Shown: positions 12,717-50,548 of the stretch, in pieces | Position numbering within the stretch: position 1 is the stretch's first letter | How the letters are laid out: every line of letters begins with the position of its first letter | Origin: Candidatus Magasanikiibacteriota bacterium | GTDB taxonomy: Bacteria; Patescibacteriota; Patescibacteriia; Magasanikbacterales; UBA922 | NCBI GenBank assembly: GCA_041674805.1 | Contig: JBAYVA010000001.1 | Span: 125,136-189,135, forward strand | Length of the DNA stretch: 64,000 bases | Reading direction: 5' to 3' | The notes under the pieces: model-generated | What the model saw: the letters and a program-made list of their open reading frames with translations, nothing else | What the model was told of the DNA's origin: nothing | The model's database searches: none | Position numbers and translations under genes: made by a program

Positions 12717-12764
12717 AAGGCTTGAAATGCCTGAAAAGCTAAAAAGGCTTAAAAGGCTATTTTG
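12717..12764. repeat. phased A-tract GGCTTAAAAG-type repeat (family copy)
   Basis: GAAGGCTTGAAATGCCTGAAAAGCTAAAAAGGCTTAAAAGGCT. Confidence 0.6.
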
Positions 12765-12770
12765 AAAAAT

Positions 12771-12799
12771 AAAACTCCGTGATTAGCGGAGTTTTTTTA
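12771..12799. terminator. bidirectional terminator between dnaJ and the convergent thyA-like gene
   Basis: AAAACTCCG-tgattag-CGGAGTTTTTTT. Confidence 0.65.
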
Positions 12800-13385
12800 A
12801 TTTTTCAATATCATCTTTGTAAATATGTGCAGAAGTAATATTGGCGATTATTTTCATTTTTTGCAGACCTAGTTTTTCTTTTATTGGTTCAAATAATTTT
12901 GTTATTTCAATATAATCTGCATAAGATTTTTTGCCAATATCTTGGCTTTTGAAAGTAGCTGTGATTATAAGTATTTCATCTCTTACAATATATTGTAACA
13001 TCGCCAAACATGGCACGTGTGTTACATCTTCTTTTGGGATTAAAGTAGAAAAAATAGCATCCATAGAATTTTCTCTTTTTTCTAAATTAGCAAGAGAATT
13101 TTCTATTTGATTCAAACCATGATAATCAAAAAATCTTTGTCTATAAGTATAACCGAAGCCGACATTTTCGTCTGTTTCAAAATTTTTCTTCATGTATTCT
13201 AAAATATCTTTGTCGCCGTGCTTTTCAACTATTTCGTCATTAATATTTGGTTCATTGATTATAAGTTGTAAATTCAAAACTTCAAGCAACTCTGTCTCAC
13301 GATAATTTATTTCTTTTCCATTTTTCAAAATATATTTTACTGCTTCAAGCCAGACCTCACCAATTGTATTTTTTTCTATGATCAT
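12783..13385 (-). CDS. thyA: thymidylate synthase family protein (short, archaeal-type)
   Basis: FGYTYRQRF (compare YGxQWR), PCLAMLQYIVRD...ATFKSQDIG (compare PCHxxFQFYV...CQLYQRSxD), SAHIY (compare THLY). Confidence 0.55.
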   Translation of the reverse strand: MIIEKNTIGEVWLEAVKYILKNGKEINYRETELLEVLNLQLIINEPNINDEIVEKHGDKDILEYMKKNFETDENVGFGYTYRQRFFDYHGLNQIENSLANLEKRENSMDAIFSTLIPKEDVTHVPCLAMLQYIVRDEILIITATFKSQDIGKKSYADYIEITKLFEPIKEKLGLQKMKIIANITSAHIYKDDIEKLKKLR

Positions 13386-13395
13386 AATTTATTTG

Positions 13396-13800
13396 TTACA
13401 TGTTACGTGAATCAAGAACCTTATTCACTTCAGCATCTGCTTCTTTATTGCCAGCACGCAAAATATGTTTGATATTAACTTTTTTGAATTGTTGCATTTC
13501 ATTCCAAGCTTTGATAAATAATTTTTGAATGGTTGGCTCTTTTACTTTCCAATGTCTATTTAGTTGTTCGCAAACAAGCTTGCTGTCTACTATACAATCT
13601 ACTTCGTCGGCTCCTAGCTCTTTGGCTTTTTTGAGACCAGAAATAATAGCCATGTATTCGGCATAGTTATTAGTTTGCTTACCCAAATATTCACCATAAT
13701 TGGCGACATTTTGTCCTTCTTCATTTTTGATTACAATGCCTGTGGCAGATGGTCCCGGGTTGCCTCGTGAGCCACCGTCGGTATATAGGTATAATTTCAT
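13396..13800 (-). CDS. rnhA: ribonuclease HI
   Basis: LYTDGGSRGNPGP...NNYAEYMAIISGL...DSKLV...ILRAGNKEAD. Confidence 0.8.
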   Translation of the reverse strand: MKLYLYTDGGSRGNPGPSATGIVIKNEEGQNVANYGEYLGKQTNNYAEYMAIISGLKKAKELGADEVDCIVDSKLVCEQLNRHWKVKEPTIQKLFIKAWNEMQQFKKVNIKHILRAGNKEADAEVNKVLDSRNM

Positions 13801-13907
13801 AGTGTACTATAATCTCGAAGCGTAGCGAGAGATCTTTCTCAGCAAACGCTATTTTAATTAATTAATCGTTAATTGATTCTAAAAGACTTCAGAATCAATT
13901 AGCGTTT

Positions 13908-15746
13908 TTACTTTCCTAAAAATTTTTGTTTAAGAAACCTGCCTGCCGGTAGGCTGGGATCCCTCGTCGTATTCTCGACTCGGGATGATTTATGCAAATC
14001 AACTATCGTAAGTTGAAGCTCCCTATTCCCATTCCACTCATTCAAATCAATTTCAAACACTATATCTATTTTATCACCAATTCGCAAAATTTTACACCAA
14101 TTGATTTCACCTTCTTTATCACAAAGACTCCAGCCAATGGTTTTGCGGATTTTGTTGTCTTGTTTGACTGTCAATTTCAAATGTTTGGCGTCTTTGCCGA
14201 CTGTCGTCATGTCAAAGATTTCTACTTCGCGAGCCAGATATTTTGGTCGGTCGTTGTTCATACCAAAAGGTTTGAATTGTTCTAGCAAATCAAACAATTC
14301 CCAATCAACTTCTGTCAGTCTTAGTTCGGCATCTATTTTGATAGTTGAACGCATGTCTAGATCTTTGGTTTTTTCATTATACTTTTCTATCATGTGTGCT
14401 TTGAAATCTGCTAGTTGGTCTTTGTTTGCCAAAGTGAAACCACAGGCCATCGGATGTCCGCCATATTTGAGAAACAAATCAGCTTTTTCTTGGAAAGTCT
14501 CAATAATATTGAAGCCTTCAATACTTCGGCCTGAACCCATTATCTCTTTTTTATTTTCTGACATTACCAAAGTTGGTTTGTAATATTGTTGAACGATTCT
14601 GCCAGCAATAAGTCCGACTAAGCCACCTGGCCAATCTTTGCCCACGACAAAAAGTACGGGTTTGTCCTTTTGGTCTTTTTCGATTTGTTCAATTGCTTTT
14701 TTTAGTAATTCCTCGGTAATTTCTCTACGTTCTTTGTTGTTTTGATCCAGTTCAAAAGCAAGATCAATAGCGTCGGTAGCTCTATCAGTCATCATGAGAT
14801 TGTAGGCAACGTTGGCATGTTTTATTCTGCCAGCAGCATTTATTCGAGGAGCAATTTGGAAACCAATAGTGTAGGCATCAAGATTTTTTTTCATACTGCC
14901 ATCTTGTTCTATGATGCGAGCTTCCATCAAAAGTTTTTGCATGCCGATTCTTTTGGTTTTGTTCAAAACTAGTAATCCATATTTGGTTAGAGTTCTTGAT
15001 TCACCAATCAGTGGTACCATGTCAGCCACGCTAGAAACAGCTACCATATCTAGTAACCATTTTTCGTGAGCTTCATGTTTTTCGCCGTTTGCTAGTAGTT
15101 CATGTTTTTCTTTGTGTTTGATAAGCAAGGCTTGCATCAGTTTGAAAGCCACACCGCCACCAGACAGATTTTTGTCAGGATAAGTTTCTGTAGAAATCTT
15201 AGGATGAATTATAGCAAAAGCTTTTGGTAGTTGCGGAGGAATAGTATGATGATCGGTAATAATCACATCTACTTTTTGCTCATTGGCAAAATCAACTTCT
15301 TTGGTATTACTAATGCCACAATCACAAGTGATGATAAGTTTGGCCCCTTCATTTTTGAGTTCAGTGATAGCTCGTGTATTCAAGCCGTAGCCATCAGTTT
15401 CACGATGGGGGAGAAAAGCGTCAACATTATCATAACCCATGGCTTTGATAGTAGAAACAAGAATAACGGAAGCCGAGACACCATCAGCATCGTAATCACC
15501 ATAGACGATTATTTTTTCTTTTTTGTCTATCGCTTTCATGATTCTCTTGACTGTCTTTTTCATGTCATGAAACAAATAAGGATCATGAATATCTTGGCTG
15601 TAATCTGGATTCAAAAATTCGTCTATATCTTTTTGGGTACGCATGTTTCTGTGGTACAACAAAGAAGCTACGACTTTTGGTAGCTCAGGAAATTCTTCAA
15701 AAAAAGATTGAGGAGGGGATTCGAGTATTTTCCAGGTTTTTTGCAT
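13908..15746 (-). CDS. recJ: single-stranded-DNA-specific exonuclease RecJ
   Basis: DHH (YGDYDADGVSAS, ITCDCGI, DHH) and DHHA1 (GGGHPMACG) motifs plus a C-terminal OB region. The last ~25 codons read through palindromic motif copy C. Confidence 0.85.
   Translation of the reverse strand: MQKTWKILESPPQSFFEEFPELPKVVASLLYHRNMRTQKDIDEFLNPDYSQDIHDPYLFHDMKKTVKRIMKAIDKKEKIIVYGDYDADGVSASVILVSTIKAMGYDNVDAFLPHRETDGYGLNTRAITELKNEGAKLIITCDCGISNTKEVDFANEQKVDVIITDHHTIPPQLPKAFAIIHPKISTETYPDKNLSGGGVAFKLMQALLIKHKEKHELLANGEKHEAHEKWLLDMVAVSSVADMVPLIGESRTLTKYGLLVLNKTKRIGMQKLLMEARIIEQDGSMKKNLDAYTIGFQIAPRINAAGRIKHANVAYNLMMTDRATDAIDLAFELDQNNKERREITEELLKKAIEQIEKDQKDKPVLFVVGKDWPGGLVGLIAGRIVQQYYKPTLVMSENKKEIMGSGRSIEGFNIIETFQEKADLFLKYGGHPMACGFTLANKDQLADFKAHMIEKYNEKTKDLDMRSTIKIDAELRLTEVDWELFDLLEQFKPFGMNNDRPKYLAREVEIFDMTTVGKDAKHLKLTVKQDNKIRKTIGWSLCDKEGEINWCKILRIGDKIDIVFEIDLNEWNGNRELQLTIVDLHKSSRVENTTRDPSLPAGRFLKQKFLGK
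13956..13988. promoter_or_regulatory. palindromic GC-rich motif, copy C (inside the recJ 3' end)
   Basis: GGGATCCCTCGTCGTATTCTCGACTCGGGATGA. Confidence 0.4.
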
Positions 15747-15876
15747 AGTTCACACGTCATCTTGAGCTGAGAATACAGCGAAAGATCTTTCCTGAATTAA
15801 AACTTATTTATTTAATTGATTTTCTTAGACGAAAATTTTCGTTTTCAATGTATACCTATTCATCCACTTTCATCTT

Positions 15877-15932
15877 AAGAAAGATCCCTCATTCAATTTC
15901 TTCGTACCTCAGAAATTTCATTTCGGGATGAA
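15877..15932 (+). promoter_or_regulatory. palindromic motif, copy D (variant with a 32-nt inner insert)
   Basis: AAGAAAGATCCCTC-[32 nt]-TCGGGATGA, in the intergenic region between the NUDIX gene and recJ. Confidence 0.3.
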
Positions 15933-16040
15933 TTACTAAAAAGTACTAAACATCGGCATGATAGTAAAAAATATCATACTGATAACAGCAATGATTGAGA
16001 TTATTGTCCAAAGGACTTTCATTTTTTTTCCGTACATAGT

Positions 16041-16088
16041 AAAAGGCTTACAAAGCTTACGAGGCTGACAAGGCCTACAAGGCTTTTA
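16041..16088. repeat. A-tract repeat family copy (GGCTTACAAAG variant)
   Basis: AAAAGGCTTACAAAGCTTACGAGGCTGACAAGGCCTACAAGGCTTTTA. Confidence 0.5.
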
Positions 16089-16090
16089 AT

Positions 16091-16516
16091 TTATTTGTTA
16101 TTTAAATTTATTGCAATTTTTAAAGCATTACGTGCATCATCATGGCTTAATTTATTAATTGCGTCTTTAACAGGAAACCAATTACCATCTATGAATCCTT
16201 CAGAACTGTTTGGAACAATTGTTTGTTGTTTTTTTGTTAAGAAACAATGAACTCTGATTACCTTGAGAGCTTTTTCACCATCAAAATAAAATGAAAATTC
16301 TGTAACAAAGCCAAGGTGTTCATCATTTGAAATAATAACCTTAGTTTCTTCTTCGACTTCACGAATAGCAGTTTGAACTTCATTTTCACCTTTTTCAACA
16401 TGACCTTTTGGTAATACCCATTCGTTTTCATTATTTTGAAGCAAAAGAACATCCATTTCATCATGTGAATGTTTTTTATAAAAAACTATGCCCATTGCTG
16501 ATGTTTTTTTCTTCAT
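16091..16516 (-). CDS. NUDIX hydrolase
   Basis: Nudix box LPKGHVEKGENEVQTAIREVEEETKV. Confidence 0.75.
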   Translation of the reverse strand: MKKKTSAMGIVFYKKHSHDEMDVLLLQNNENEWVLPKGHVEKGENEVQTAIREVEEETKVIISNDEHLGFVTEFSFYFDGEKALKVIRVHCFLTKKQQTIVPNSSEGFIDGNWFPVKDAINKLSHDDARNALKIAINLNNK

Positions 16517-16567
16517 ATTAATTATTAAAATTCTTACATTCGTAAGTATTCGTAATTCGTATATAAT

Positions 16568-18358: not shown

Positions 18359-18500
18359 AGTTTGAAAATGCTCAAAAGGCCTTTAATGTTGTTGTTTATT
18401 TATATTTTTAATTTGGTAATTTTATTGCTCTATATTAGCAGTTTTTGGAGGGTTTGGCAATGTCTCGTTGGACAAACATTAAGTTTTGTCTGAAAGATTC

Positions 18501-18528
18501 AAAAAAACACGAAATTATCGTGTTTTTT
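18501..18528. terminator. bidirectional terminator
   Basis: AAAAACACG-aaattat-CGTGTTTTTT. Confidence 0.6.
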
Positions 18529-18556
18529 AAGTATTTAAATTTTGAAAAAGTGTTAA

Positions 18557-21304: not shown

Positions 21305-21997
21305 TTATTGATTTGGTAGGTTGACAGTAATAGACATATAATCTGTATCCGTAGTTTCTACTGTATCTACTGTATATACTACACCATCAATATCTTTTTC
21401 TTCTTCAAAAAAAGTAAATTGTTTGGTATTGCCATTGTTACTTTCCTCGTCTATTTGAAAGCCTTTTTTCTTGAGTTCTGTTTTGTAATATTCGATCAAA
21501 AAATCTTGTTTAGCATGAAGTTTTATCCATTCTATTTTATAAGCATCTCTTTCATCAGACAAAGGTTTTTGCATAAAAGAAATTAACTTTTCTATGTTGT
21601 TCATTTTTTCACCTTCAGGTTTATTATTAGGTATATATTTATTTTCTTTATCAAAATAAATCAAAAATGGAGACAAAACTAATTTTGGCAAAAAAGCAGC
21701 TCTTTCTATTTTTTTGCTCTTTTCTTTGCCAGAAGTATGTGTAATTTTTTCTACATTTGAGACGTCGTAGATTGGTATTTTGGTAGTAAAAGTTTCTGGC
21801 AAATCTTTCAATTCTTTGCTAGTTGGACCAAAGGCAAATTTGAGTAAAACAATAGAAATTATAAATAAAATAGTAAAACAACCACAGCCTGTGGCACAGG
21901 TGGATTTTAGGCAAGATCGTTGTTTAGTAAGTTCCTCAATAGGAGGTTCTTTGATTTTGATTTTGTCTATTTCTTGACGCATATTTGTTGTGAGCAT
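21305..21997 (-). CDS. hypothetical membrane-anchored protein (start trimmed to Met 21997)
   Basis: The 22330 start of the ORF-track entry translates the A-tract repeat and overlaps the RNase J gene. The Met at 21995-21997 (MLTTNMRQ...) is the first start after the repeat. Confidence 0.4.
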   Translation of the reverse strand: MLTTNMRQEIDKIKIKEPPIEELTKQRSCLKSTCATGCGCFTILFIISIVLLKFAFGPTSKELKDLPETFTTKIPIYDVSNVEKITHTSGKEKSKKIERAAFLPKLVLSPFLIYFDKENKYIPNNKPEGEKMNNIEKLISFMQKPLSDERDAYKIEWIKLHAKQDFLIEYYKTELKKKGFQIDEESNNGNTKQFTFFEEEKDIDGVVYTVDTVETTDTDYMSITVNLPNQ

Positions 21998-22057
21998 TAT
22001 AGCAAAAAAACTTTGATTTGTATAGTCAAGTATATTTTGGTACAATATTATAATAGT

Positions 22058-22141
22058 AAGGCCTAAAAGGCTTAAAATGCTTGAAAAGCTGAAAAAGCCT
22101 TTTAAGCCTTTTGGGCATTTTAAGCCTTTCAAGCTTTTTTT
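22058..22141. repeat. A-tract repeat copy arranged as a long imperfect palindrome (forward units then reverse units)
   Basis: AAGGCCTAAAAGGCTTAAAATGCTTGAAAAGCTGAAAAAGCCTTTTAAGCCTTTTGGGCATTTTAAGCCTTTCAAGC. Confidence 0.6.
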
Positions 22142-23500
22142 ATGCATATAAAATTCTGCGGAGCCGACGAGGGCGTTACTGGTTCTTGTCATCTTTTGGA
22201 TACTGGCAAAATGAAGATACTCATTGATTGTGGGATGTTTCAAGGTGGAGATTTCAATGAAGGAAGAAATCATGATGTGTTTCCTTTTGATCCAAAAGAT
22301 ATTGATGTTTTGTTGGTTACTCACGGTCATTTAGATCATATTGGACGTATTCCAAAATTAGTAAAAGAAGGTTTTGCTGGCAAAATTTACTCTACCAAAG
22401 CGACTCAAGAATTTATGCCTCTTATTTGGTATGATGCTTACAATATTATGTCTTATGACAATCGTAAATTTGGTTATCCTGTTTTGTTTAATGAAGTAGA
22501 TATTGCTGAAGCTCAAGCTCTTTGTCATGGTCTAGATTATCATGAAGAATTGGATTTGGGTCATGATGTCAAAGCTGTTTGGAAAGATGCTGGACATATT
22601 TTTGGTTCAGCTTTTATTGAAATTACAGTTGATGGCAAAAAAATTGCTTTTTCTGGTGATTTGGGAAATGAACAAGTTCCAATTCTCAAAGATACAGAAA
22701 GTTTGAGTGACGATGTTACTTTGGTTGTCTGTGAATCTACTTATGGTAATCGTTTACATGAAGATATAGATACCAGAAAAAGTGTTATTTCTAATTTAAT
22801 TTTGGAAGGTATCAAACGTGGTGGTACTATTATGATTCCAGCTTTTTCACTTGAACGTACTCAAGAACTTTTGTATGAATTGAATCAGTTGAGTGAATAT
22901 GATAATACTTTGCCTCAGGTACCAATTTTCTTGGATAGTCCTTTGGCAATTGATGCTACCAAAGTTTACAAAAAATATGCTGAGTATTATGATAAAGCAG
23001 CTTTTGATTTGCATATGTCTGGAGATGATTTTTTACATTTTCCTCAATTACAAAATACTTATAGTAAACGTGAATCTCAAAAAATAAACAATACTCCTGG
23101 ACCAAAAATTATTATTTCAGGTGCAGGTATGATGAATGGCGGCAGAATTTTGCATCATGCTTTACGTTATTTATCAGATTCTTTGTCTACTCTTATGATT
23201 GTTGGTTATCAAGCAAATGGTACTTTGGGTAGAAGGCTTTTGGAAGGTGAAAAACATGTAAAAGTTATGGGTACAGATGTTGATGTCAGATGTGAAATAA
23301 AAGCCATTGGTGCTTTGTCAGCTCATGGTGATCAAGCAAAATTGTTGAAGTGGCTTGGCACTGGCAAAAAAGTCAAAAAAGTTTTTTGTGTACATGGTGA
23401 AGGCGACGCTTTGACTACTTTTGCAGACAAAATAAAAACTGATTTGAAAAAAGAAGCTTATATTGCTAAGTATGATGAAGTGGTGGAAATAAAGGCTTGA
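22142..23500 (+). CDS. rnj: MBL-fold beta-CASP ribonuclease (RNase J-like)
   Basis: HGHLDHIG metallo-beta-lactamase motif and a beta-CASP region. 452 aa, shorter than canonical RNase J. Confidence 0.7.
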   Translation: MHIKFCGADEGVTGSCHLLDTGKMKILIDCGMFQGGDFNEGRNHDVFPFDPKDIDVLLVTHGHLDHIGRIPKLVKEGFAGKIYSTKATQEFMPLIWYDAYNIMSYDNRKFGYPVLFNEVDIAEAQALCHGLDYHEELDLGHDVKAVWKDAGHIFGSAFIEITVDGKKIAFSGDLGNEQVPILKDTESLSDDVTLVVCESTYGNRLHEDIDTRKSVISNLILEGIKRGGTIMIPAFSLERTQELLYELNQLSEYDNTLPQVPIFLDSPLAIDATKVYKKYAEYYDKAAFDLHMSGDDFLHFPQLQNTYSKRESQKINNTPGPKIIISGAGMMNGGRILHHALRYLSDSLSTLMIVGYQANGTLGRRLLEGEKHVKVMGTDVDVRCEIKAIGALSAHGDQAKLLKWLGTGKKVKKVFCVHGEGDALTTFADKIKTDLKKEAYIAKYDEVVEIKA

Positions 23501-23530
23501 AAGGCTTAAAAAGCTTAAAATGCTCGAAAG
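23491..23530. repeat. A-tract repeat copy
   Basis: AAAGGCTTGAAAGGCTTAAAAAGCTTAAAATGCTCGAAAGG. Confidence 0.6.
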
Positions 23531-23562
23531 GCAATCTTTGTACTAAAAGATTGCCTTTTTTA
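23528..23562 (+). terminator. rho-independent terminator
   Basis: GGCAATCTTT-gtactaa-AAGATTGCC followed by TTTTTT. Confidence 0.7.
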
Positions 23563-23602
23563 TTTGATTTTTATCTAAATTTAAGTTAATATTAGTTTAT
23601 TA

Positions 23603-23649
23603 AAAGCCTTTTTGGTTTTTCTGGCCTTTTGAGCCTTTCAAGCTTTTTT
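23603..23649. repeat. A-tract repeat copy, reverse orientation
   Basis: AAAAGCCTTTTTGGTTTTTCTGGCCTTTTGAGCCTTTCAAGCTTTTTT. Confidence 0.6.
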
Positions 23650-30175: not shown

Positions 30176-30277
30176 ATTTTCATTAAATCATAAAATCACT
30201 TGATTTTACATAATGTCACAAATTCGGTGATTAAAGCATTTTAAGTTTTTTAAGCTTTTGTGTTATAATAAATCAAT

Positions 30278-31222
30278 ATGATAGAAAAATCAAGACAAGT
30301 TATCTGTTGGGGTGCTTCTGAAAGAGGGGAAGAAGAAAAAGGAATAAATGATTTTTGGGATGCTAGACCCATTTTTGATCAAGATGAAGTTACTTGGAAA
30401 GACAAAGTAAAACTTTTGTTTTTTCCAAAAAAGTTGTTACTTTATAATTGGATTAGAAAAGCTTTGCAAGAAAAAAGAAAAGAAAATAAAAGAACTGGCA
30501 AATTTTCCAAATTAAAAATTTTGGATGTAGCTTGTGGTACAGGTGCCAATATTATTGAAATGAAAAAACTATGGTGTAAAGAAATAGAAGTATATGGAGT
30601 TGATAGAATTCATTTACAAGTAGATTTGGCAAATAGACGTATCAAAGAATATGGTGTTTGGGCTGATATTAGTTTTTATGAGGCTAATTCTTTGCCTTTC
30701 AACCATGATTTTTTTGATGTTGTTTTTAGTTCTGATATTTTAGTTAATATTGAAGACTTTTCAAGTTATTTGGAAGAGTTACAAAGAGTTTTGTCTTTTG
30801 GTGGTAGTTTGGTAATTTTTGCTGACTCAAAATTAGGTAAGCATGCTTATATAAAAAATTATTTGCATAAAAAAGGTTTGGATATATCCAATCACAAACC
30901 ATTTCATTTGTCTTCTTATTCAAAAGAAGATTTGATAAAAACTTTAACAGTCAATGATTTTGAAATAAAAAAAATGTATACAACTTTTTTCTTGGATTTT
31001 TTGACATATCCTGAAGATTTTTATGAAAGTTTACAATCACAAAACAAGTTTTTCTTTTTACGTAATATTAACAAATTTTTGTGTTGGTTAAAAATAAAAA
31101 CAAAACCAGTTTCTTCATTTTGTTCTGGATTATATAGTTTGATTGAAATGTTGACGATTGGTAGATTTTTGCAAGTGCAGGGGTATATTGTGTTAGCTAA
31201 GAAAAAGCACTATAATGAATGA
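30278..31222 (+). CDS. class I SAM-dependent methyltransferase
   Basis: ILDVACGTGANI motif I. Confidence 0.6.
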   Translation: MIEKSRQVICWGASERGEEEKGINDFWDARPIFDQDEVTWKDKVKLLFFPKKLLLYNWIRKALQEKRKENKRTGKFSKLKILDVACGTGANIIEMKKLWCKEIEVYGVDRIHLQVDLANRRIKEYGVWADISFYEANSLPFNHDFFDVVFSSDILVNIEDFSSYLEELQRVLSFGGSLVIFADSKLGKHAYIKNYLHKKGLDISNHKPFHLSSYSKEDLIKTLTVNDFEIKKMYTTFFLDFLTYPEDFYESLQSQNKFFFLRNINKFLCWLKIKTKPVSSFCSGLYSLIEMLTIGRFLQVQGYIVLAKKKHYNE

Positions 31223-33650: not shown

Positions 33651-33796
33651 ATAATAAAAAGTCTTAAATTGATTATAATTTTAAAATTTTATTTTTGATT
33701 TAGGATTTAGGATCTCGTATTTTTTATTTTTCGCTAATTTATTGACTTTTCTTATTATTTCCTATATAATGTCAACAATTAAATAACAAAAGCATT

Positions 33797-33835
33797 TCTA
33801 GCCTTTCAGGCATTTTCAGCTTTTTAAGCATTTTT
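33797..33835. repeat. A-tract repeat copy, reverse orientation
   Basis: TCTAGCCTTTCAGGCATTTTCAGCTTTTTAAGCATTTTT. Confidence 0.55.
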
Positions 33836-41945: not shown

Positions 41946-43397
41946 ATGGCTGAAGAAGTAATTCTACGTTTTGACAATGTTTGTTTTGAATATGCAGAAA
42001 GAAAACCAGTCTTGGACGAGGTCAGTTTTTCTGTACGTAAAGGTGCAAAACTTACATTAATGGGCCAAAATGGTGCTGGCAAAAGTACACTTTTTAAACT
42101 TATCAAAGGTGAAAATAAACCAAACTCAGGTAATGTTTTTTTGACAAATGAAGCTAGTATTGGTACAGCTGAGCAGATGATTGCCAAGAGTGATTTGGCT
42201 TTGACTATTGAAGATTATTTTGGCAAAGCCTTTCATGAAGTTCCAGGTAATATCAAAAGTCAAATAAGTAAGGTAATGGACGCTGTTAATCTTACAGTAC
42301 CAACTGATCGCAAAGTAGGAGATTTGTCTGGTGGACAGCAAGCACGTATTTTACTTGCTTTTGCTCTTATCCAAAATCCAGATATTTTGCTTTTGGACGA
42401 ACCTACAAACAATTTGGATAAAGACGGAATTGATCATCTTATCCAATTTTTGGTGATGTATGACAAAACAGTGATAGTGATTTCTCATGACGCTGATTTC
42501 CTCAATTGTTTTACTGAAGGTGTTATTTATCTTGATGTCTTTACCAAAAAAGTTGAGACTTATGTTGGTGACTATTATTCAGTAGTTGATGAAATTCAAA
42601 ATAGAATTGATAGAGAAATAAAGAAAAATGCTCAACTAAAAAAACAAATTCAAGATAATAAAGACAAAGTAAATTTCTTTTCCAACAAAGGTGGTAAAAT
42701 GCGTAAATTGGCGAGTAAATTGCGTGAAGAAATAGACGAATTTGAAGAAAATAAAGTAGAAGTTCGTCGCGAAGATAAGACAATTAGAGAATTTGATATT
42801 CCTGCTCAAGGAATTATTGGTGATATAGTGACTATCAAATCTATCAAAGTTATCAAAAATCACGAGGCTATTATAAAAGAAGTTGATATTATTTTGCGTC
42901 AAAGAGATAGACTACTTATTGCTGGTCCAAATGGCGTTGGAAAAAGTACTTTACTTAGAACTTTGGTCAATGGTAGCAATGAAGGTGTCACTATTATGAA
43001 AAATACTCGTGTAGGTTATTATAGCCAAGATTTTGCTACGCTTGATTATGATCAAACAGTTTTTGATTCTTTGCAAAGTGTAGTACAAGAGGGGACTACT
43101 ACTGAAAATATGCGTGCTGTAGCGGCTGGATTTTTACTTTCTGGTGAAACTATGGGGCTCAAAATTTCACATTTGTCAGAAGGACAAAAAGGTCTTTTAT
43201 CTTTTGCTAGATTGGTTTTATTGCAACCTGGTTTACTTGTTTTGGACGAACCTACCAATCATATCAATTTCCGTCATATACCCGTTATAGCTGAGGCTAT
43301 AAATAATTATAGTGGTGCTATTATTTTGATTAGTCATATGCCAGATTTTGTGGAAAAAATAAAATTTGACCAAGAATTGGATTTGGGAAGATATTAA
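41946..43397 (+). CDS. ABC-F family ATPase (tandem ABC domains, no TMD)
   Basis: Two Walker A motifs (GQNGAGKST, GPNGVGKST) and two signature motifs (LSGGQQARI, LSEGQKGLL) with an inter-domain linker. Confidence 0.8.
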   Translation: MAEEVILRFDNVCFEYAERKPVLDEVSFSVRKGAKLTLMGQNGAGKSTLFKLIKGENKPNSGNVFLTNEASIGTAEQMIAKSDLALTIEDYFGKAFHEVPGNIKSQISKVMDAVNLTVPTDRKVGDLSGGQQARILLAFALIQNPDILLLDEPTNNLDKDGIDHLIQFLVMYDKTVIVISHDADFLNCFTEGVIYLDVFTKKVETYVGDYYSVVDEIQNRIDREIKKNAQLKKQIQDNKDKVNFFSNKGGKMRKLASKLREEIDEFEENKVEVRREDKTIREFDIPAQGIIGDIVTIKSIKVIKNHEAIIKEVDIILRQRDRLLIAGPNGVGKSTLLRTLVNGSNEGVTIMKNTRVGYYSQDFATLDYDQTVFDSLQSVVQEGTTTENMRAVAAGFLLSGETMGLKISHLSEGQKGLLSFARLVLLQPGLLVLDEPTNHINFRHIPVIAEAINNYSGAIILISHMPDFVEKIKFDQELDLGRY

Positions 43398-43399
43398 AC

Positions 43400-43449
43400 A
43401 AGGCTTAAAAGGCCAGAAAAGCTTGAAAGGCTCAAAAGGCCTTTTTTGT
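43400..43449. repeat. A-tract repeat copy ending in an AAAAGGCCTTTT palindrome (acts as terminator)
   Basis: CAAGGCTTAAAAGGCCAGAAAAGCTTGAAAGGCTCAAAAGGCCTTTTTT. Confidence 0.6.
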
Positions 43450-44694: not shown

Positions 44695-44700
44695 AAAACA

Positions 44701-44737: not shown

Positions 44738-45366
44738 TATAATTTTTTTATTTCACTTGCTGTCAAAATTTCTAATTCTTGCAATCTTTGCAACAGGCTT
44801 TCCATATTGGTATAGAGAATTGGTTCAAAACCTATTTCTTTGGCATTTTCCAAAACTCTGGGAGTATCGTCTATAAAAATCATTTCGGAAATATTTACTT
44901 CAAGTTTTTCTGCTAGCATTAGGAATGCTGCTGGGTCTGCTTTCATTACACCTACTTCGGCAGAAAATAAAGTGATATCAAACAAATCATCAACGCCAAG
45001 TTGTCTGGCTTCTTGTGCACCAGTTGCAGTGTGATTACTAAACAAACCAACTTTGTAACCTTTATTTTTTAATAATTTTATTAGAGGAAGTATCTCTTCA
45101 TTATATTTTCCTTTTGGAAAATTGTGAAGTAATTTCAAGAATTCATCTACTTTTGATTCTTTTCCTAAATCTGTAAATACTATAGTCCAAAATTCTTTTT
45201 CGTCTATATTGGTAGTATTTATAAGATGATTGTATTTGTAATAAGAATTACTAAATTCTTCATTGGAAATATTTAGAAGTTCTGAAATCATGGTGTGATA
45301 TCTAGAAGTAAAAAAGACTACTCCTACCCAATCAAAACCAATTGCTTTTATCTTTATCATAAACAT
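44737..45366 (-). CDS. HAD-superfamily hydrolase
   Basis: Motif I at the N-terminus (IKAIGFDWVGVVF, aspartate nucleophile); motif III FIDDTPRVLENAKEIG. Confidence 0.65.
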   Translation of the reverse strand: MFMIKIKAIGFDWVGVVFFTSRYHTMISELLNISNEEFSNSYYKYNHLINTTNIDEKEFWTIVFTDLGKESKVDEFLKLLHNFPKGKYNEEILPLIKLLKNKGYKVGLFSNHTATGAQEARQLGVDDLFDITLFSAEVGVMKADPAAFLMLAEKLEVNISEMIFIDDTPRVLENAKEIGFEPILYTNMESLLQRLQELEILTASEIKKL

Positions 45367-45800
45367 GTTGTTCTAGTGTGATCTACTTTTCCTCTATTTA
45401 CTATTCCTATTGCTTGATCAAATTTTTCATATCTAAGTCTTATTTTTTCCAGTTCGTCATCAGAAATATTAGTTTCATTTTTAATTGTTTGTATTTTGGT
45501 ATACATAGTTGATAGATCTGCTTTGGCAGGACTTCTTTTATTACGTTGTGGTGAGTTTTCTGGTCCTAATTCTTCAATTGCCATTAATTTTTGAATATTA
45601 TGATTTTGTTCAAATTCATCAAACATCCTTTCTAGTTCAGCAATATCTTCTCTACATTCTCTTTTTGTTTCAGGTATTACAGGTCCTTTATCTTCATGAA
45701 TTTCAGCAAGTTCTGCATATGCTGCATACATATCAGCTTCAGCAGCTTCCTTTTGTGAATTTATTTCTTCGGGTGTTGGCCCTGGTTTATCTATTCCCAT
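45357..45800 (-). CDS. hypothetical acidic protein
   Basis: ORF; its stop overlaps the HAD start by 10 nt (ATGTTTATGA). Confidence 0.4.
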   Translation of the reverse strand: MGIDKPGPTPEEINSQKEAAEADMYAAYAELAEIHEDKGPVIPETKRECREDIAELERMFDEFEQNHNIQKLMAIEELGPENSPQRNKRSPAKADLSTMYTKIQTIKNETNISDDELEKIRLRYEKFDQAIGIVNRGKVDHTRTTCL

Positions 45801-45844
45801 ATTGTATTTTGGTTAATAATAATTTAGTTAATATAATATATTTT

Positions 45845-46093
45845 TTAATCAGTTTGCTCTTCCCTTGTGCTATCTAAATAATCAACTAAAAAATCAGAAA
45901 AAATCTTTTCTAAATCTTCTTGATTTAATTCAATTATACTTTTATTTTCTTTTACTAAATATTTTTCTAAATATGGTTCTACATCAATTTCTTCAAATTC
46001 TTCGCCAGCTTGTTCTATAGTTTGTAATATAAAAGAGATTGCTTTTTTTTTAGCTTCAATTTCTAATTCTCGCATTTGTTCTGGTGGAGTCAT
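45845..46093 (-). CDS. hypothetical acidic small protein
   Basis: ORF 16 nt downstream of the helicase stop. Confidence 0.4.
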   Translation of the reverse strand: MTPPEQMRELEIEAKKKAISFILQTIEQAGEEFEEIDVEPYLEKYLVKENKSIIELNQEDLEKIFSDFLVDYLDSTREEQTD

Positions 46094-46109
46094 AATTTTA
46101 ATTTAAAAT

Positions 46110-47411
46110 TTATTTATTTAAATCCATAAACTTCTTTACTCTTTCATCAATGAAAATGTACTTAGCAAGCAGGGGAGTCGTGAGAGACATACCTTCTAGT
46201 GTGCGACAGCGACTAAGGGCGACATAAGCTTGTCCGTGAGCAAAAGTACCTGAACCAAAATCTATATGTACTTTGTCAAAAGTTTTTCCTTGTGCTTTGT
46301 GAATAGTTACTGCCCAAGCAAGTTTTAGTGGCAGTTGGGTGAAACTACCAACAACTTCAGATTCTATTTTTTTGTTTTCTCTGCTGTAGATAAAACGGAT
46401 AGCTTCTCTTGTCTGGGATGTAATATCTTCGTAAGTATTATCATCAAAAAGTACTCTTACACTATCTTTTTCTGTTTTTATTATTTTTACAATATCACCA
46501 TTTACCCAACGACCAAGAGGATCATTGCTAAGTATCATGACTTGAGAACCTTCTTTCAAAATTAAGTTTAGTTCGGTAGGTAAATCTCTTTCTTTGAATT
46601 GTCCTTCAATTGTCCCATTGTACATTTTTGCTTTGGCTGGCAATTTGTCCATTTCTTTTTTGTTTATAGTATTAGCGACATAATTGGTTGGGACAATAGA
46701 TAGCACAAATTCATCTTCAGGTTTTTTGTATTGTGGTATAAATCTGCTATTTATTAATTCTATATCTTGTTGGTCAAAACTGCAAGTTCTAATTTTGTCT
46801 AGAGCCTTGATAAATTTATTTTGTTTTTTGCTGTCTTGTCTATATATTTGTGTTAATTCTACTTTGAAAAAATTGCCATCTGAAAAACATTTGGCATCAA
46901 AGAAATAAGGACTTTCATAATGTAACTTGAAAAAAATTTCTTCATCATCTACGACGATAGGTGGCAATTGGTACAAGTCACCAATAGCAAATATTTGCAC
47001 TCCGCCAAAAGGTTCATCTGGTCTGTTACCATTTAGACGCATAAATTTGTCTATGCAATCCAACAAGTCAGCACGAACCATAGAGATTTCATCGATGATA
47101 ATAATATCTATTTTTTTATAAATATTATTGTTGTCATCATACATTTTTTTTATGCTGTCTAATGTAGTTTGTGGGTGAAAGCGAAAAAAAGAGTGAATAG
47201 TTTGTCCTTGGACATTGAGAGCTGCTACGCCAGTGTATGCCAAAGTTACCACATTTTTTTTGGTGGTAGCGCGAAAGTATTTGAGGAAGTGGGATTTACC
47301 AGTGCCAGCTCGGCCTGTCATAAAGATATTTCTATCGCTATTTTCCAGCAAGTCTATTATAGCTTTTTTTTCTTTGTTTAGATCAAAGTCTGTTGGTGCT
47401 GTGACACTCAC
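46110..47411 (-). CDS. PIF1/RecD-like SF1 DNA helicase
   Basis: Walker A GRAGTGKSH; YTGVAALNV; IIIIDEISMV; GDLYQLPPI; C-terminal AVTIHKAQGKTFD. Confidence 0.7.
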   Translation of the reverse strand: MSVTAPTDFDLNKEKKAIIDLLENSDRNIFMTGRAGTGKSHFLKYFRATTKKNVVTLAYTGVAALNVQGQTIHSFFRFHPQTTLDSIKKMYDDNNNIYKKIDIIIIDEISMVRADLLDCIDKFMRLNGNRPDEPFGGVQIFAIGDLYQLPPIVVDDEEIFFKLHYESPYFFDAKCFSDGNFFKVELTQIYRQDSKKQNKFIKALDKIRTCSFDQQDIELINSRFIPQYKKPEDEFVLSIVPTNYVANTINKKEMDKLPAKAKMYNGTIEGQFKERDLPTELNLILKEGSQVMILSNDPLGRWVNGDIVKIIKTEKDSVRVLFDDNTYEDITSQTREAIRFIYSRENKKIESEVVGSFTQLPLKLAWAVTIHKAQGKTFDKVHIDFGSGTFAHGQAYVALSRCRTLEGMSLTTPLLAKYIFIDERVKKFMDLNK

Positions 47412-47550
47412 TTTTTTTTGGCTTTCTCTTTTTTTGCCAATACCTTTTTTGATAAAAAAAGTCTTGAAAGGAGTCGCTTCTTTTGGTTTTGTTTGTTTTG
47501 TTGTTCTTTTGATATGTTTTGGTTTAGATTTTAGGTTGCTTTATTATATC

Positions 47551-47580
47551 ATAAAACGTATCGGGAGGGGATACGTTTTG
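47551..47580 (-). terminator. terminator for the DGQHR gene (minus strand)
   Basis: ACGTATC-gggagggg-GATACGT with flanking A/T runs. Confidence 0.5.
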
Positions 47581-47594
47581 TGGAGTTATGAATT

Positions 47595-48902
47595 TTAATT
47601 GTTATTAATATTTTGTTTTTTAATATTTTCTAATTCATCATCATTTATTATAGTTGTACTATTATCAAATGTTAAAATGTGGTGATTTCTGTTATATTCA
47701 TCTGATTTTCCATGTTCTATATCCAATATAATTAAATTATTATGTTTTTTACCAATAACATCTTTTTTATAATCTATTATTTCTTTCATTTTTTTGTATA
47801 ATCTTGATTGTAATCCTTCTCCACCACTTCTACTGAAATCTCCTTCAATACCAAATAATTTTTTTGCTTCTGTTTTATTTATTAATGAAAATATTTTGTT
47901 AAAATATTCTTTTAAATATTGTATATTATTGTTATTAAGTTTTATCTCTTTTTCAAAATCATTAAATAATTTCAAAAAGGCTCCTACGCCAGTAGTTTTA
48001 AATAATATAGATTGCTCAAATATTGAGTAACTTCCATCTATTTTTGGTTTTGGATAATGTTCTGAAAATTTTTCTTTTATTATTTGGAAATAAATTGATA
48101 ATATATTATATATTATTATAGGATCTGTTTTTTTATTTTTATATTCATCATATAATATTGAAAAAGCTTTTTCTGGTTTAAATAATTCTTTTATCTTTTC
48201 TACTAAAAAAGCCTGAGAAATAGTGCCTGAGCCAGTTCCTAACATTTTTATTAGACCAAAAAAAGGGTCACTTTTTGAATAATTAAGCTTTTTAACTATA
48301 GAGTGAGAAAGAGTATATTCATTATATTCTCCTTCTTGAGAACCAAATAAATCATAATATAAAGATTTATTTACGGCTTTTTGTTCAAAGTTTACTGTAG
48401 CAAATATTTTTGATTGTTCCCAAATATCATAACCGACAAGCATTGTAATTGGCAATTCAATATCTAATTCATCAAAAGTTAACTTGTTTTCTTCATAAAA
48501 TTTTTTTATTCCTAACAATCTGTGTTGTCCGTCAATAATAAAAGCTTTGTATAGTTTTGTGTCAAATGTTAAATATTCTCCATCCCAAGTTATTTCACTT
48601 TCTGTGTTTTCATCCCTTTCATTAATGGATAATATTATAGCAGTTGGAAAAAGTACTATAGATTTTTTATCTTTTTTTATTATTCCTTCTTCATCTATTA
48701 AAGAATTTTTTATGTAGTTAGCTATTTTTTTTATTTTTTCTTGGTCACTTAGTCTTTGAAAAAATTTATTATCTGATCCATCATTTTCTATTTTCCTATA
48801 TGTAAATTCAGAAATTTTGTCTAATTCAGAAAAAGACATCTTTCCTACAAAAGAAGATTTTATTAGATCTTTATTTAATTGTGATAATTTTAGTTTCATC
48901 AT
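47595..48902 (-). CDS. DGQHR-domain protein (DndB-like, ParB/Srx-like superfamily)
   Basis: FPTAIILS, IIDGQHRLLGIKKF, VNFEQKAVNKSLYYDLFG; 435 aa. Confidence 0.65.
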   Translation of the reverse strand: MMKLKLSQLNKDLIKSSFVGKMSFSELDKISEFTYRKIENDGSDNKFFQRLSDQEKIKKIANYIKNSLIDEEGIIKKDKKSIVLFPTAIILSINERDENTESEITWDGEYLTFDTKLYKAFIIDGQHRLLGIKKFYEENKLTFDELDIELPITMLVGYDIWEQSKIFATVNFEQKAVNKSLYYDLFGSQEGEYNEYTLSHSIVKKLNYSKSDPFFGLIKMLGTGSGTISQAFLVEKIKELFKPEKAFSILYDEYKNKKTDPIIIYNILSIYFQIIKEKFSEHYPKPKIDGSYSIFEQSILFKTTGVGAFLKLFNDFEKEIKLNNNNIQYLKEYFNKIFSLINKTEAKKLFGIEGDFSRSGGEGLQSRLYKKMKEIIDYKKDVIGKKHNNLIILDIEHGKSDEYNRNHHILTFDNSTTIINDDELENIKKQNINNN

Positions 48903-48903
48903 A

Positions 48904-49557
48904 TTAAATATCTATTTCTTTTTGACTTGTTATTTCATTTTCATAGGAATCTTCCTCTTTTGTATTTTTTATAGTTGAGTTACTGGCTATTTCTTTTAGA
49001 ACATTATCTATATCTGTATTTGTTTCTTTTCTTAACTCTTTAAATTGTTCCGATATATCAGTACGTATTTGTTCCTTTATATTTATCATTTCTTCTTTTA
49101 CTTTTATTTCGGCTTCTTTTACTAAAAGTTCTTTTTGTTCCTTAAATGACGTATCTAATTCTTTCTTTTTTATTTCTAATTCTTCAGATAGTTCCTTTTT
49201 TTTATCTTTTAATCTTTTATCTTCCATTATTCCAAAAAATATTAAAATAGCTGAGATCAAAAAACCAAAACCAGTAATCCACCATTTTAATTGATTAATT
49301 GCTTTATCATAAGCTGCCTCTTTTTCATCGGCTACATTTTTTTTGAAATCTATAGAAGTTATCAAGTTTTCAATACTTTTGTATTCAATAGTTTTTGAAT
49401 CTAATTTTTGGTTTTGAAATTCTTGATCTAATATTATTTTATTTATAATTTTTTGGTCTACTGAATTAAAAGCAAACACTTGTTTTATAAAAAGAGTAGA
49501 AAATCCTGATATTATGAATATTATTAATATCATTATTTTTTGATTAAATTTGATCAC
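48904..49557 (-). CDS. membrane protein with C-terminal coiled coil, translationally coupled to the DGQHR gene
   Basis: Two TM segments, then a long KE-rich heptad region. Its stop lies 1 nt before the DGQHR ATG. Confidence 0.5.
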   Translation of the reverse strand: MIKFNQKIMILIIFIISGFSTLFIKQVFAFNSVDQKIINKIILDQEFQNQKLDSKTIEYKSIENLITSIDFKKNVADEKEAAYDKAINQLKWWITGFGFLISAILIFFGIMEDKRLKDKKKELSEELEIKKKELDTSFKEQKELLVKEAEIKVKEEMINIKEQIRTDISEQFKELRKETNTDIDNVLKEIASNSTIKNTKEEDSYENEITSQKEIDI

Positions 49558-49740
49558 AGTGTTTATTTTTTTAGTTTAAAATACATATTTATAATACCTC
49601 TCTACTCTAATTATCGCAAATATACAAAAAAGTAGCTTGTTTTAGCAAAAAAATAGCTATTTTTAAAAAAACTTAAAATAAAATTAAAAGTTATTCACAC
49701 CATAATAACAAAAACAGCTAAATTAGCTGTTTCTTCTTAG

Positions 49741-49811
49741 TTCGGGGATAGGGATTCGAACCCCAATAGTCAGGATCAAAACCTGAAGTCCTACCATTAG
49801 ACGATCCCCGA
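49741..49811 (-). tRNA. tRNA-Gln (anticodon TTG)
   Basis: Hand-folded cloverleaf: acceptor TCGGGGA/TCCCCGA, D-stem GTCT/GGAC, anticodon stem TCAGG/CCTGA with loop TTTTGAT, T-arm GGGG-TTCGAAT-CCC. Confidence 0.8.
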
Positions 49812-49883
49812 ATGTTTGAATTGTTACTTCACAGAAAACATAATATCACAATAAAGACTTGAAATCAAGTCTTTATGTGGACA

Positions 49884-50492
49884 TTATTTCATATCAAATA
49901 ATACTGGTATTTCTAGCGTTGCGTCGTACTCAGGCAATCCAGAAGGATTGTCTTTCTTGAGTATTAGATGTCCATTATTTTTGTAGGTCGGTGTGTCAAA
50001 AGTTAGTGTCGCTTCAAATGCTACAAACTCTTCTGTCATCCAATCACTTTTGGCTGTAGCAATACCACTTGCGATGATGATTCCATCCCAGTCAGTCAAG
50101 ACGATAGGGAAGCTTGCTTCAAAAAACCAAGTACCACGAGCTTGACCAGTGATAGTCAAAGGACTGGTAACAATTTGATTGGGACGAATATTTTCCAAAA
50201 TTATTTGATCTCTTTGATTTAGTTCGTTACCAATATCTTCAATAAAATTTTTGTTATCAGTTGTTTTACATTGTCTTGGATAACTTTCCATTATTGGGAA
50301 ACCTGCTTCAAGACATTCTGTAAAATTAGTAATAATTTTTTCTTCTACTTGTGGAGTCAAAGGTGTTTGTGAAGTAGAACTAGGGGAGACATTATTATTT
50401 ATTTGTTTATTTTGTCTAGAATAGTTCAAGATAAAAATGTTTGCTACAATCAAAGTTACAAATATGAGACTTATAATGATAATTTTTTTCAT
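49884..50492 (-). CDS. secreted Gmad2 immunoglobulin-like domain protein
   Basis: Signal/TM, then VTSPLTITGQARGTWFFEASFPIVLTDWDGIII...EEFVAFEATL...NPSGLPE, typical of PF10648. Confidence 0.55.
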   Translation of the reverse strand: MKKIIIISLIFVTLIVANIFILNYSRQNKQINNNVSPSSTSQTPLTPQVEEKIITNFTECLEAGFPIMESYPRQCKTTDNKNFIEDIGNELNQRDQIILENIRPNQIVTSPLTITGQARGTWFFEASFPIVLTDWDGIIIASGIATAKSDWMTEEFVAFEATLTFDTPTYKNNGHLILKKDNPSGLPEYDATLEIPVLFDMK

Positions 50493-50496
50493 ATGT

Positions 50497-50548
50497 TTGA
50501 AAATGCTTAAAAGGCTTAAAATGCTGGAAAAGCTAGAAAGGCTAATTA
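50497..50548. repeat. A-tract repeat copy
   Basis: GAAAATGCTTAAAAGGCTTAAAATGCTGGAAAAGCTAGAAAGGCT. Confidence 0.6.

Follow-up and report, generated by a model that had tools for sequence, protein, structure and literature searches.

A gene-facing family of intergenic arrays built from a 9-bp unit in Candidatus Magasanikbacteria

Bacteria of the candidate phyla radiation have tiny, packed genomes, whose non-coding DNA and modes of gene expression are little known. In a stretch of 64,000 nucleotides from one of them (Candidatus Magasanikiibacteriota bacterium, contig JBAYVA010000001.1; the whole stretch is hereafter the window), short arrays that are A-rich on one strand and T-rich on the other recur in extragenic DNA at about one per 6 kb. 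Extrapolation from the 12 arms in the 64 kb predicts over a hundred such modules per ~0.75-Mb genome, which is surprising in a genome so streamlined and raises the question of what these arrays are and how they persist. The reading that we favour, albeit with a confidence that falls somewhat short of even, is that they are a persistent population of repeats resembling REPINs or MITEs (transposable elements of the miniature inverted-repeat kind), restricted to untranslated regions and to one orientation, with side effects at the RNA level.

The repeat unit and its placement against genes

The repeat period is exactly 9 bp in every copy, as seen both with Tandem Repeats Finder and when the copies are phased on their invariant GC. 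The unit has the consensus A-A-[G/A/T]-G-C-[T/C]-N-[A/G]-A (AADGCYNRA), which defines the RA subfamily; a second, rare subfamily (AC) has AADGCYNAC, and units of the two are never mixed within an array. A module is made of five non-identical units spanning ~45 bp: exactly five are present in 44 of the 65 non-redundant arrays from the window and related loci, and counts above five stem from over-extension into a partner arm. The original prediction had described units of 10–11 bp, three to six per copy; both figures have to be replaced by a period of nine and a typical number of five.

The repeat family is real and intergenic. When at least 14 matches are required at the 15 fixed positions, the window contains nine arrays of three consecutive units, all of them intergenic, against a mean of 0.01 and a maximum of one in 100 dinucleotide-preserving shuffles. 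Repeating this test with periods of 7, 8, 10, 11 and 12 bp gives zero or one array, and none at 10 and 11. Likewise, 36 of the 70 single AADGCYNRA units fall in non-coding DNA, which constitutes 11% of the window, where 7.9 are expected (a 4.5-fold enrichment), and the earlier description of dispersed repeats, strictly intergenic and at gene boundaries, stands. Our family-wide sample comprises 92 arrays in 342 kb, that is, the window and 43 related loci; the genes of the latter are naive open reading frame (ORF) calls except in L237–L244 and L365–L368, and among those picked up by pattern the RA subfamily is over-represented. In this sample 76 of the arrays lie outside the gene calls, though 87.5% of the DNA is coding, and the remaining 16 are ORF-caller extensions or weak matches.

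The period speaks directly to the proposal that phased A-tracts make these regions intrinsically bent. Each unit does contain an A3–5 tract; however, with a period of 9.0 bp on a 10.5-bp helix the five tracts sum in-plane to 1.8/5, and neither the invariant GC nor the gene-facing polarity described below is needed for bending. We regard bent DNA as a very improbable explanation of the family, and in the mechanism favoured here it would play no part in the effects on the host.

Five of the nine unit positions are fixed, each being 90–99% conserved, while the degeneracy at positions 6 and 8 consists of transitions only. The arrays of the window are unlike each other at nearly all degenerate positions, so that the copies are not near-identical, and within an array neighbouring units share their position-3 base more rarely than expected (40 cases versus 53.7 by chance, P = 0.0065). 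In solo arrays ~97% of the fixed positions are intact, with many scoring 24/24; doublets exceed singlets in this respect (22.8 versus 21.1 of 24, p = 0.045), a gap due to a few weak matches. The near-identical units and variable copy number of slippage-type repeats are not seen, although single 9-bp indels do occur. This is also what separates the family from the cyanobacterial STRR heptamers and the mycobacterial MIRUs, which are intergenic short tandem arrays, the MIRUs lying within operons and overlapping stop and start codons. Like them, our arrays are short tandem units scattered between genes; unlike their near-identical units of variable number, those described here are heterogeneous, fixed at five and paired as palindromes.

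The orientation of the arrays follows a rule that had been overlooked. The original prediction spoke of copies in either orientation; both strands are indeed used, but relative to the adjacent gene the polarity is strict, with the A-rich strand always pointing 5′ to 3′ away from the gene that the array abuts. Most of the few arrays that seem to break the rule are orthologues of the one at 16043, on the outer side of which lies a 33-aa ORF too short to pass the length cut-off. When two arrays lie within 400 bp of each other, the order is A-then-T in 28 instances, 24 of them with a gap of less than 80 bp, and T-then-A in none. When ORFs of at least 60 aa are counted, the T-rich arm has its outer end 3–8 nt (mode 5) before the ATG in most of 33 cases; in most of ~23 cases the A-rich arm starts either flush with the end of the stop codon or 9 nt before it, such a stop being the unit's own TAA or TGA in the frame Lys-Ala-stop. 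Outer ends are precise to near the nucleotide, whereas the distance from inner ends to promoters and terminators differs from array to array. Many solo T-rich arms, though not all, have a good sigma-70-type −10 box, often accompanied by a −35 box, 2–23 nt upstream of their inner end (promoters were judged by consensus and partly by eye), and canonical terminator hairpins follow the A-rich arms at 12771–12795 and 23526–23559; it follows that the arrays are probably transcribed. A leader of ~50 nt would then consist mostly of the U-rich form, and a trailer would open with the A-rich form. The earlier claim that several copies are fused to rho-independent terminators is supported for these two arrays.

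All nine copies that had been listed are present where they had been placed. The array of five RA units at 12717–12761 (plus strand) comes directly after the TAG stop of dnaJ (11625–12716) and is followed 9 nt later by the hairpin at 12771–12795, which resembles an intrinsic terminator on both strands. The AC-subfamily array at 16043–16087 (plus) has four full units, AAGGCTTAC x4, and then AAGGC; it starts 3 nt past the stop codon of a Nudix gene (16091–16516, minus), and its minus strand is a T-rich leader that ends 5 nt (16038–16042) before the ATG of the 33-aa membrane ORF. At 18361–18390 (plus) is a partial array of two units, the minus strand of which is a T-rich leader before the ATG of lepA (18358). 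The gene for a beta-CASP protein is bordered on either side: upstream by an A-rich palindrome arm (22058–22098, plus), ~7 nt after a −10-like box whose promoter-like match ends at 22051, and by its T-rich counterpart (22095–22141, minus), whose T7 end directly precedes the ATG at 22142; downstream by an A-rich array (23491–23536, plus), in which the first unit contributes the stop codon (...E I K A stop) and the last forms part of the stem of the terminator-like hairpin at 23526–23559 (plus; a 14-bp stem and then a T run). Next comes a T-rich array (23602–23649, minus), preceded by a promoter-like TTGATT-17-TAATAT (read by eye), its T6 end directly before the uvrB ATG (23650). A methyltransferase gene (ATG at 30278) has a T-rich array of three units (30232–30259, minus) 19 nt ahead of its ATG, with a TGTTATAAT box in between, and one of five units (33788–33835, minus), which has TTGACT-17-TATAAT upstream (read by eye), ends 5–8 nt before the infB ATG (33841). 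Another A-rich array (43400–43449, plus) begins 2 nt past the TAA stop of an ABC-F gene (41946–43397) and ends in AAAAGGCCTTTTTT. Finally, the array at 50497–50548 (plus), with a TATAAT box at its inner end, provides on its minus strand the T-rich leader of the gene at 49884–50492 (Gmad2 domain), and a single inverted unit, AAGGCTTGA, at 50559–50567 (minus) is the remnant of a partner arm beside it. Relative to the earlier list, the infB copy, given as 33797–33835, reaches back to 33788; the lepA copy holds two units only; and the copies at 30232–30259 and 50559–50567 are additions.

These placements have consequences for annotation, as had been anticipated. The N-terminal extension of uvrB is an artefact, its TTG (23629) lying within the array and the UvrB profile aligning from residue 2 of the protein that begins at ATG 23650; equally, ORF 21305–22330 is an artefact running through the palindrome, the orthologues of 221–243 aa fitting a start at 21982. 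The gene so delimited (21305–21982, minus) encodes a conserved hypothetical protein of ~225 aa without a Pfam match and is divergent from the beta-CASP gene in all Magasanikbacteria loci fetched. Knowledge of the repeat family would prevent such false N-terminal extensions and spurious palindrome ORFs in these metagenome-assembled genomes (MAGs). The gene at 22142–23500, by contrast with its earlier name rnj, codes for a beta-CASP protein of the metallo-beta-lactamase fold, for which the aCPSF1 and Cas14 models are nearest and which falls far below the RNase J models.

The genes that carry arrays are a housekeeping mix with no common function, and a regulon was rejected on that ground; no tRNA gene is adjacent to an array. 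The leader orientation has one marked property: the 29 non-redundant leader arrays contain ATG twice as they are oriented and would contain it 38 times if flipped, the U-rich unit being unable to form ATG by construction. In folding predictions the U-rich RNA is also the less structured (−8.3 versus −10.3 kcal/mol for the A-rich RNA, p = 2e-8). No Shine-Dalgarno-like motif was seen upstream of any of ~60 genes in the window. A TATAAT-like box ends 5–10 nt before the ATG in many window genes, which suggests that leaderless or very short-leader mRNAs may be the default in this organism. The orientation rule fits both the absence of Shine-Dalgarno motifs and the avoidance of upstream AUGs and offers a handle on start-codon choice. 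Some further ideas were tried and given up. In-frame K-A-stop units were considered as a tandem-stop device: ~12 of 20 independent cases (counted by hand) are in that frame, but ascertainment alone would be expected to give such an excess, and neither of the other two frames is closed; separate unit matrices for leaders and trailers were not seen; and the likeness of the U-rich unit GCCUUUUAA to boxA (GCUCUUUAA), a tentative lead, cannot explain the A-rich copies.

Placement of this kind could mean that the arrays are RNA modules of the host, in which the U-rich leader serves as a single-stranded loading platform where Shine-Dalgarno sequences are lacking and the A-rich copy as a trailer element, either or both being read by a sequence-specific RNA-binding factor or by each other, through coupling across a hairpin or trailer–leader pairing. 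We consider this doubtful while giving it real weight. The near-nucleotide precision of the outer ends to start and stop codons combined with variable inner ends, the fixed length of five units, and fixed positions that are ~97% conserved whether an array is paired or solo would all follow from it; conversely, the genes served have no functional theme, and the unit matrix is identical in leaders and trailers although the two RNAs are complementary rather than alike. A bolder version, which we deem unlikely, takes the 9-nt unit as the recognition code of a dedicated factor that punctuates genes, with 45-nt “caps” that are U-rich on entering a gene and A-rich on leaving it. If that were true, any trailer could pair with any leader, giving genome-wide insulation, translational coupling or antisense control, and the repeat would be a regulatory invention of the host rather than selfish DNA.

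The same data can also be read at the level of double-stranded DNA, as binding arrays for a lineage-specific protein that assembles cooperatively every 9 bp and acts as a polar barrier, an operator or a nucleoid organiser; we rate this as rather improbable. One factor would explain why the matrix, the length and the gene-facing polarity are the same at 5′ and 3′ ends; five conserved positions of nine with free ones between them are typical of protein recognition; and adjacent units avoid identity. There are precedents among ribbon-helix-helix proteins, whose arrays include the 7-bp heptads of omega, the 8-bp boxes of MetJ and the 10–11-bp iterons of ParR: these too are packed direct or inverted short repeats with few conserved positions and a period at or below the helical repeat, but each is a lone locus at a promoter or a plasmid centromere, whereas the arrays here, at an estimated ~170 copies per genome, are dispersed against start and stop codons. 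Binding to DNA, however, gives no reason for the tight spacing to starts and stops or for the avoidance of ATG in leaders, and no candidate protein was identified, the only DNA-binding proteins seen in the window being HU, a CsoR-type repressor and HrcA. 

Palindromic doublets and their predicted folding

Two modules placed back to back, always A then T, form palindromes of about 85–100 nt. That at 22058–22141, correctly recognised in the original prediction as a long imperfect palindrome, is predicted to fold into a hairpin of ~80 nt (−34.5 kcal/mol, z = −3.6) with a stem of ~33 AU-rich pairs, standing after the predicted promoter of the beta-CASP gene and before the gene itself. The pair spanning 23491–23649 folds around its terminator and promoter (−57.8 kcal/mol, z = −7.6). 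Both contain uninterrupted predicted helices of 21 bp, and stems across array pairs range from −25 to −55 kcal/mol; single arms have weak, generic self-complementarity (mean −10 kcal/mol) without a consistent stem. Such hairpins stand directly before start codons, e.g., those of the beta-CASP gene, atpC and atpH.

The two arms of a doublet match in subfamily, with 27–28 RA/RA pairs, two AC/AC and none mixed, and the AC hairpin of locus L242 has the same consensus structure as the RA hairpin of the window, with three A-U to C-G double changes. At a finer scale there is less to see: partner arms are no more complementary (−38.5 kcal/mol) than non-partner arms (−40.4 kcal/mol; permutation p = 0.975, 27 pairs), which disposes of partner-specific complementarity. 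Strand-specific selection through G-U wobbles was discarded as well. All five arm differences in two window hairpins are wobbles on the sense strand, but neither strand is consistently more stable across the 27 pairs, and wobbles arise in the hairpins because positions 6 and 8 are degenerate by transitions only. The doublet thus appears to be inherited or replaced as a unit, with no fine-scale compensatory selection demonstrated. These results divide the alternatives. That partner arms behave as independent arrays at degenerate positions suits protein-binding DNA, whereas arms always of one subfamily and an AC hairpin that keeps its pairing do not; RNA modules are helped by the transition-only positions 6 and 8, which preserve generic pairing through G-U wobbles, and by the hairpins between atpD and atpC and before atpH, both for low-stoichiometry subunits, and are hurt by the absence of partner-specific complementarity.

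A further possibility, taken from the original prediction, is that the palindromes are intrinsic bidirectional terminators or RNA-processing sites, of which the solo copies would be remnants. The A-then-T order does give an A-rich 5′ arm and a U-rich 3′ arm with a U run in both directions, the predicted stems lie between −25 and −55 kcal/mol, and the 21-bp helices are long enough for RNase III, given the helix length that this enzyme requires. As terminators, however, they are poorly placed: a scan for intrinsic terminators did not flag the palindrome at 22058–22141, whose long AU-rich stem is unlike the short G+C-rich stem-loop of such a terminator; A-rich arms precede separate, canonical terminators, while T-rich arms are 5′ leaders; the hairpins stand directly before genes, leaving no room for another promoter; that of the beta-CASP gene lies past its predicted promoter, where a strong terminator would silence the gene; and no array pair is found at the convergent gene pairs of the window. 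Moreover, about one-third of the arrays are solo, many of them perfectly conserved. We find this explanation quite unlikely, and termination as a general role is not supported.

Distribution among relatives and the possible origin of the arrays

A scan with the three-unit pattern over one genome per species, run alongside a metagenome scan, sets a lower bound on the taxonomic range. Chance singletons come from many phyla; among the matches listed, multi-array loci come only from MAGs of Candidatus Magasanikbacteria, one “Patescibacteria” MAG, which is 95% identical to the window, and one contig binned as gammaproteobacterial. The metagenome scan yields at least about 25 further loci of the same type, with GC contents of 26–51%, its other matches being homogeneous coding repeats. 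A link to phages was pursued and dropped, all matches among the 120 viral-contig stretches listed being coding repeats of K/A/E type. The covariance models of Rfam 15, at the gathering score, match two tRNAs in the window and nothing in the repeat family, and in the literature we found no paper on repeats of Magasanikbacteria, nor any with the repeat sequence other than in unrelated primers. The family is apparently lineage-restricted and undescribed.

The comparison with relatives that had been recommended shows that arrays can be absent, decayed or of the other subfamily at syntenic sites, and it brings out the start/stop spacing and the lineage restriction that had gone unnoticed. Close relatives (87–95% identity) keep the dnaJ trailer array with zero to three changes and one 9-bp deletion: it is in place in L032 and L066, the former having lost one unit, and the hairpin at 12771–12795 is identical in both. 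The AC-type array at 16043 has RA-type orthologues in L032, L066 and L091 (87–95% identical genomes), which indicates that the array before the 33-aa ORF was probably replaced as a whole. The lepA leader array (18361–18390) is absent from the orthologous site of L091, where the sequence has been replaced and does not form a clean empty site; this is the only presence/absence case among the close relatives.

Syntenic loci obtained through homologues of the beta-CASP protein extend the picture. In L237 (protein identity 77%) the upstream hairpin is ~93% identical (counted by hand), and shortened arrays follow the beta-CASP gene and precede uvrB; the protein ends in ...EIKA in the window and in ...EI in L237, so that gain or loss of a unit has moved the stop codon. 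In L368 (82%) this intergenic site holds a hairpin of AC type that lies 75 nt from the ATG, and in L242 (63%) one that abuts the ATG; the hairpin is RA in the window and L237 and AC in both arms in L368 and L242. L367 (66%) keeps a decayed A-rich arm. Eight relatives (61–72%) have no array in up to 21 kb each, with gene order unchanged where their contigs extend that far, and leaders and trailers in these array-free relatives are short (10–35 nt). Elsewhere, arrays stand before infB, era, atpC, htpX and ruvB in different genomes, with different bases at the degenerate positions; the infB array has a counterpart in L085, with 72% identity in the DNA around it. Recurrence before orthologous genes in diverged genomes, and copies better conserved than neighbouring coding DNA, are what RNA modules of the host would predict, but syntenic relatives carry the same housekeeping genes array-free, and arrays are gained, lost or subfamily-swapped at one site. 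That array-free relatives retain the same genes in the same order is equally awkward for DNA binding.

These patterns lead us, tentatively, to the population of REPIN- or MITE-like repeats proposed at the outset. Arrays and palindromic doublets would be copied or replaced whole, through recombination or by an enzyme that reads the 9-bp unit, and copies would survive only where a compact genome tolerates an insertion, namely in short leaders and trailers, in which anything inserted would have to come to lie against the start or stop codon; the arrays would abut start and stop codons because those are the tolerated sites. Only the AUG-free, less structured orientation would survive in leaders, where, without Shine-Dalgarno motifs, the choice of start would have to depend on an open, AUG-free leader, making 5′ ends an orientation filter. 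As 9 bp equal three codons, arrays could grow or shrink across a stop codon without a change of frame. A transcript containing both arms would fold into a long AU-rich hairpin with its U run at the next start codon, which might act as an attenuator or insulator, as a 5′-terminal stem (in the beta-CASP gene) or possibly as an RNase III substrate.

Two kinds of known repeats offer partial parallels. REPs and REPINs, the latter being hairpin-forming REP doublets, are associated with RAYT transposases in Pseudomonas and enterobacteria (PMC3116915, PMC3337134). They resemble our arrays in being short extragenic repeats, about one per 6 kb, in transcribed intergenic DNA beside gene ends, in forming inverted doublets that give a ~90-nt hairpin besides singlets, with A and T runs flanking the doublet, and in persisting within one lineage by vertical inheritance while decaying elsewhere. 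They differ in that a REP is a short imperfect palindrome, whereas an arm here is five degenerate 9-bp units; in that copies here differ at every degenerate position and many singlets are as intact as doublets; and in the strict gene-facing polarity, the near-fixed spacing to start and stop and the lack of any RAYT seen in the window. The Correia elements (nemis) of Neisseria and other bacterial MITEs form hairpins that are RNase III substrates and alter the expression of neighbouring genes (PMC2649163, PMC2229807, PMC10969869). Like the doublets, they are ~100 bp long with inverted ends, lie near genes, are co-transcribed and vary in presence between related genomes. Correia elements, however, have defined terminal repeats of 26 bp, duplicate a TA target, contain an IHF site and exist as near-identical copies; in our family we found no target duplication and no conserved core, its ends are internally periodic, and its solo arms, which are common, have a set orientation. 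What distinguishes our family from known repeats is that its arms are internally periodic, each with five heterogeneous 9-bp units, that it faces genes with a strict polarity, and that its distance from start and stop codons is nearly constant.

Several points weigh against a mobile repeat population. RAYTs are IS200-like tyrosine transposases, and the repeats typically flank their genes. No transposase or RAYT is found among the long ORFs of the window, which covers 64 of 744 kb and in which a few ORFs were compared with NCBIfam only and not Pfam; nor was a clean empty site or target-site duplication found (TA often flanks the outer array ends, in a genome that is AT-rich). The copies vary at degenerate positions, unlike those of young MITE families, yet keep ~97% of fixed positions even when solo; this resembles purifying selection on each copy, or homogenisation, more than the decay of selfish DNA, and the array length is fixed. 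The beta-CASP hairpin is ~93% identical where the protein is 77%, the dnaJ trailer ~95% identical where the aligned flanking DNA is 87%, and the same genes (infB, era, atpC, htpX, ruvB) are preceded by arrays in different genomes. With partner arms not specially complementary and no strand bias, hairpin selection is not demonstrated, and the A orientation at the 3′ ends of genes is weakly explained. Intact solo arrays, fixed length, high conservation and the failure to find a transposase together keep the RNA-module and DNA-binding alternatives alive. If a specific enzyme or binding protein does maintain the arrays, it would form a parallel to the REPIN–RAYT pairing with a different architecture, and the patchy distribution among syntenic relatives means that such a protein should be findable by phyletic profiling.

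A few of the related loci hold sequences that interrupt or mimic the arrays. In L237 (11490–11530, aligned to window position 23640) a G+C-rich insert of ~31 bp, CGAGACGGATCCGCCTTGGGTGGACAAGC..., interrupts the T-rich array before uvrB, and the annotated start of uvrB sits within it; a similar small hairpin, CTACCTGTCGGTAGACAGG, breaks a T-rich arm in L007 (~6585–6603). An apparent array in uvrC of L242 (20640–20680) was dismissed as a false positive, being a coding CKPC motif; the Cys-rich motif of this UvrC, CKPCEPGKLCKPC, is encoded by DNA (TGTAAGCCTTGT...) that mimics the AC-type repeat.

Other features of the window

Among the housekeeping genes of the window are hrcA-grpE-dnaK-dnaJ, recJ, lepA, murJ, corA, uvrB, RNase Y, truB, infB and leuS. 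An alternative genetic code was rejected, long table-11 ORFs covering 89% of the window.

A second, unrelated repeat family of ~37 nt, AAGAAAGATCCCTCGTCGTATTCTCGACTCGGGATGA, contains the inverted repeat ATCCC...GGGAT and has no Rfam match. Its copies are at 6950–6985 (plus), 13805–13845 (minus), 15750–15790 (minus), 51960–51998 (plus) and 13962–13990 (plus). Copies lie in sense orientation 5–15 nt upstream of the ATG of dnaK, an RNase H-like gene (13396–13800), recJ and the gene at 52009–53358; one further copy is inside the 3′ part of recJ, and a related copy is apparently present in L091. Between recJ and the Nudix gene is the 33-aa hydrophobic ORF mentioned above, MYGKKMKVLWTIISIIAVISMIFFTIMPMFSTF (15936–16037, minus), with conserved counterparts in L032, L066 and L091. 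Small genes of 28 aa in L237 (beside the RNase H-like gene) and 32 aa in L244 (in the recJ–lepA gap) are like it in size.

The segment 44200–50000 has a GC content of 25–30% and includes genes for tRNA-Gln, a PIF1-like helicase, a DndB-like protein and a Lys-rich protein of the form CxxC-x17-CxxC, the last with long AAAGAA-type repeats, besides several ORFs that match no family; possibly this is an island that was acquired horizontally or serves in defence. A “23S rRNA intervening sequence protein”, a bAvd-like four-helix bundle, is encoded at 1350–1709 (plus) and, in a different place, at 7707–8087 of L238; such genes may mark relics of diversity-generating retroelements or another mobile gene family. 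Lastly, a near-perfect 9-bp tandem, ACACCTACT x9 (58992–59072, 94% matches), lies inside a cytochrome b5-domain gene (58623–59309), where it encodes repeated Thr-Pro-Thr and has no relation to the intergenic arrays.

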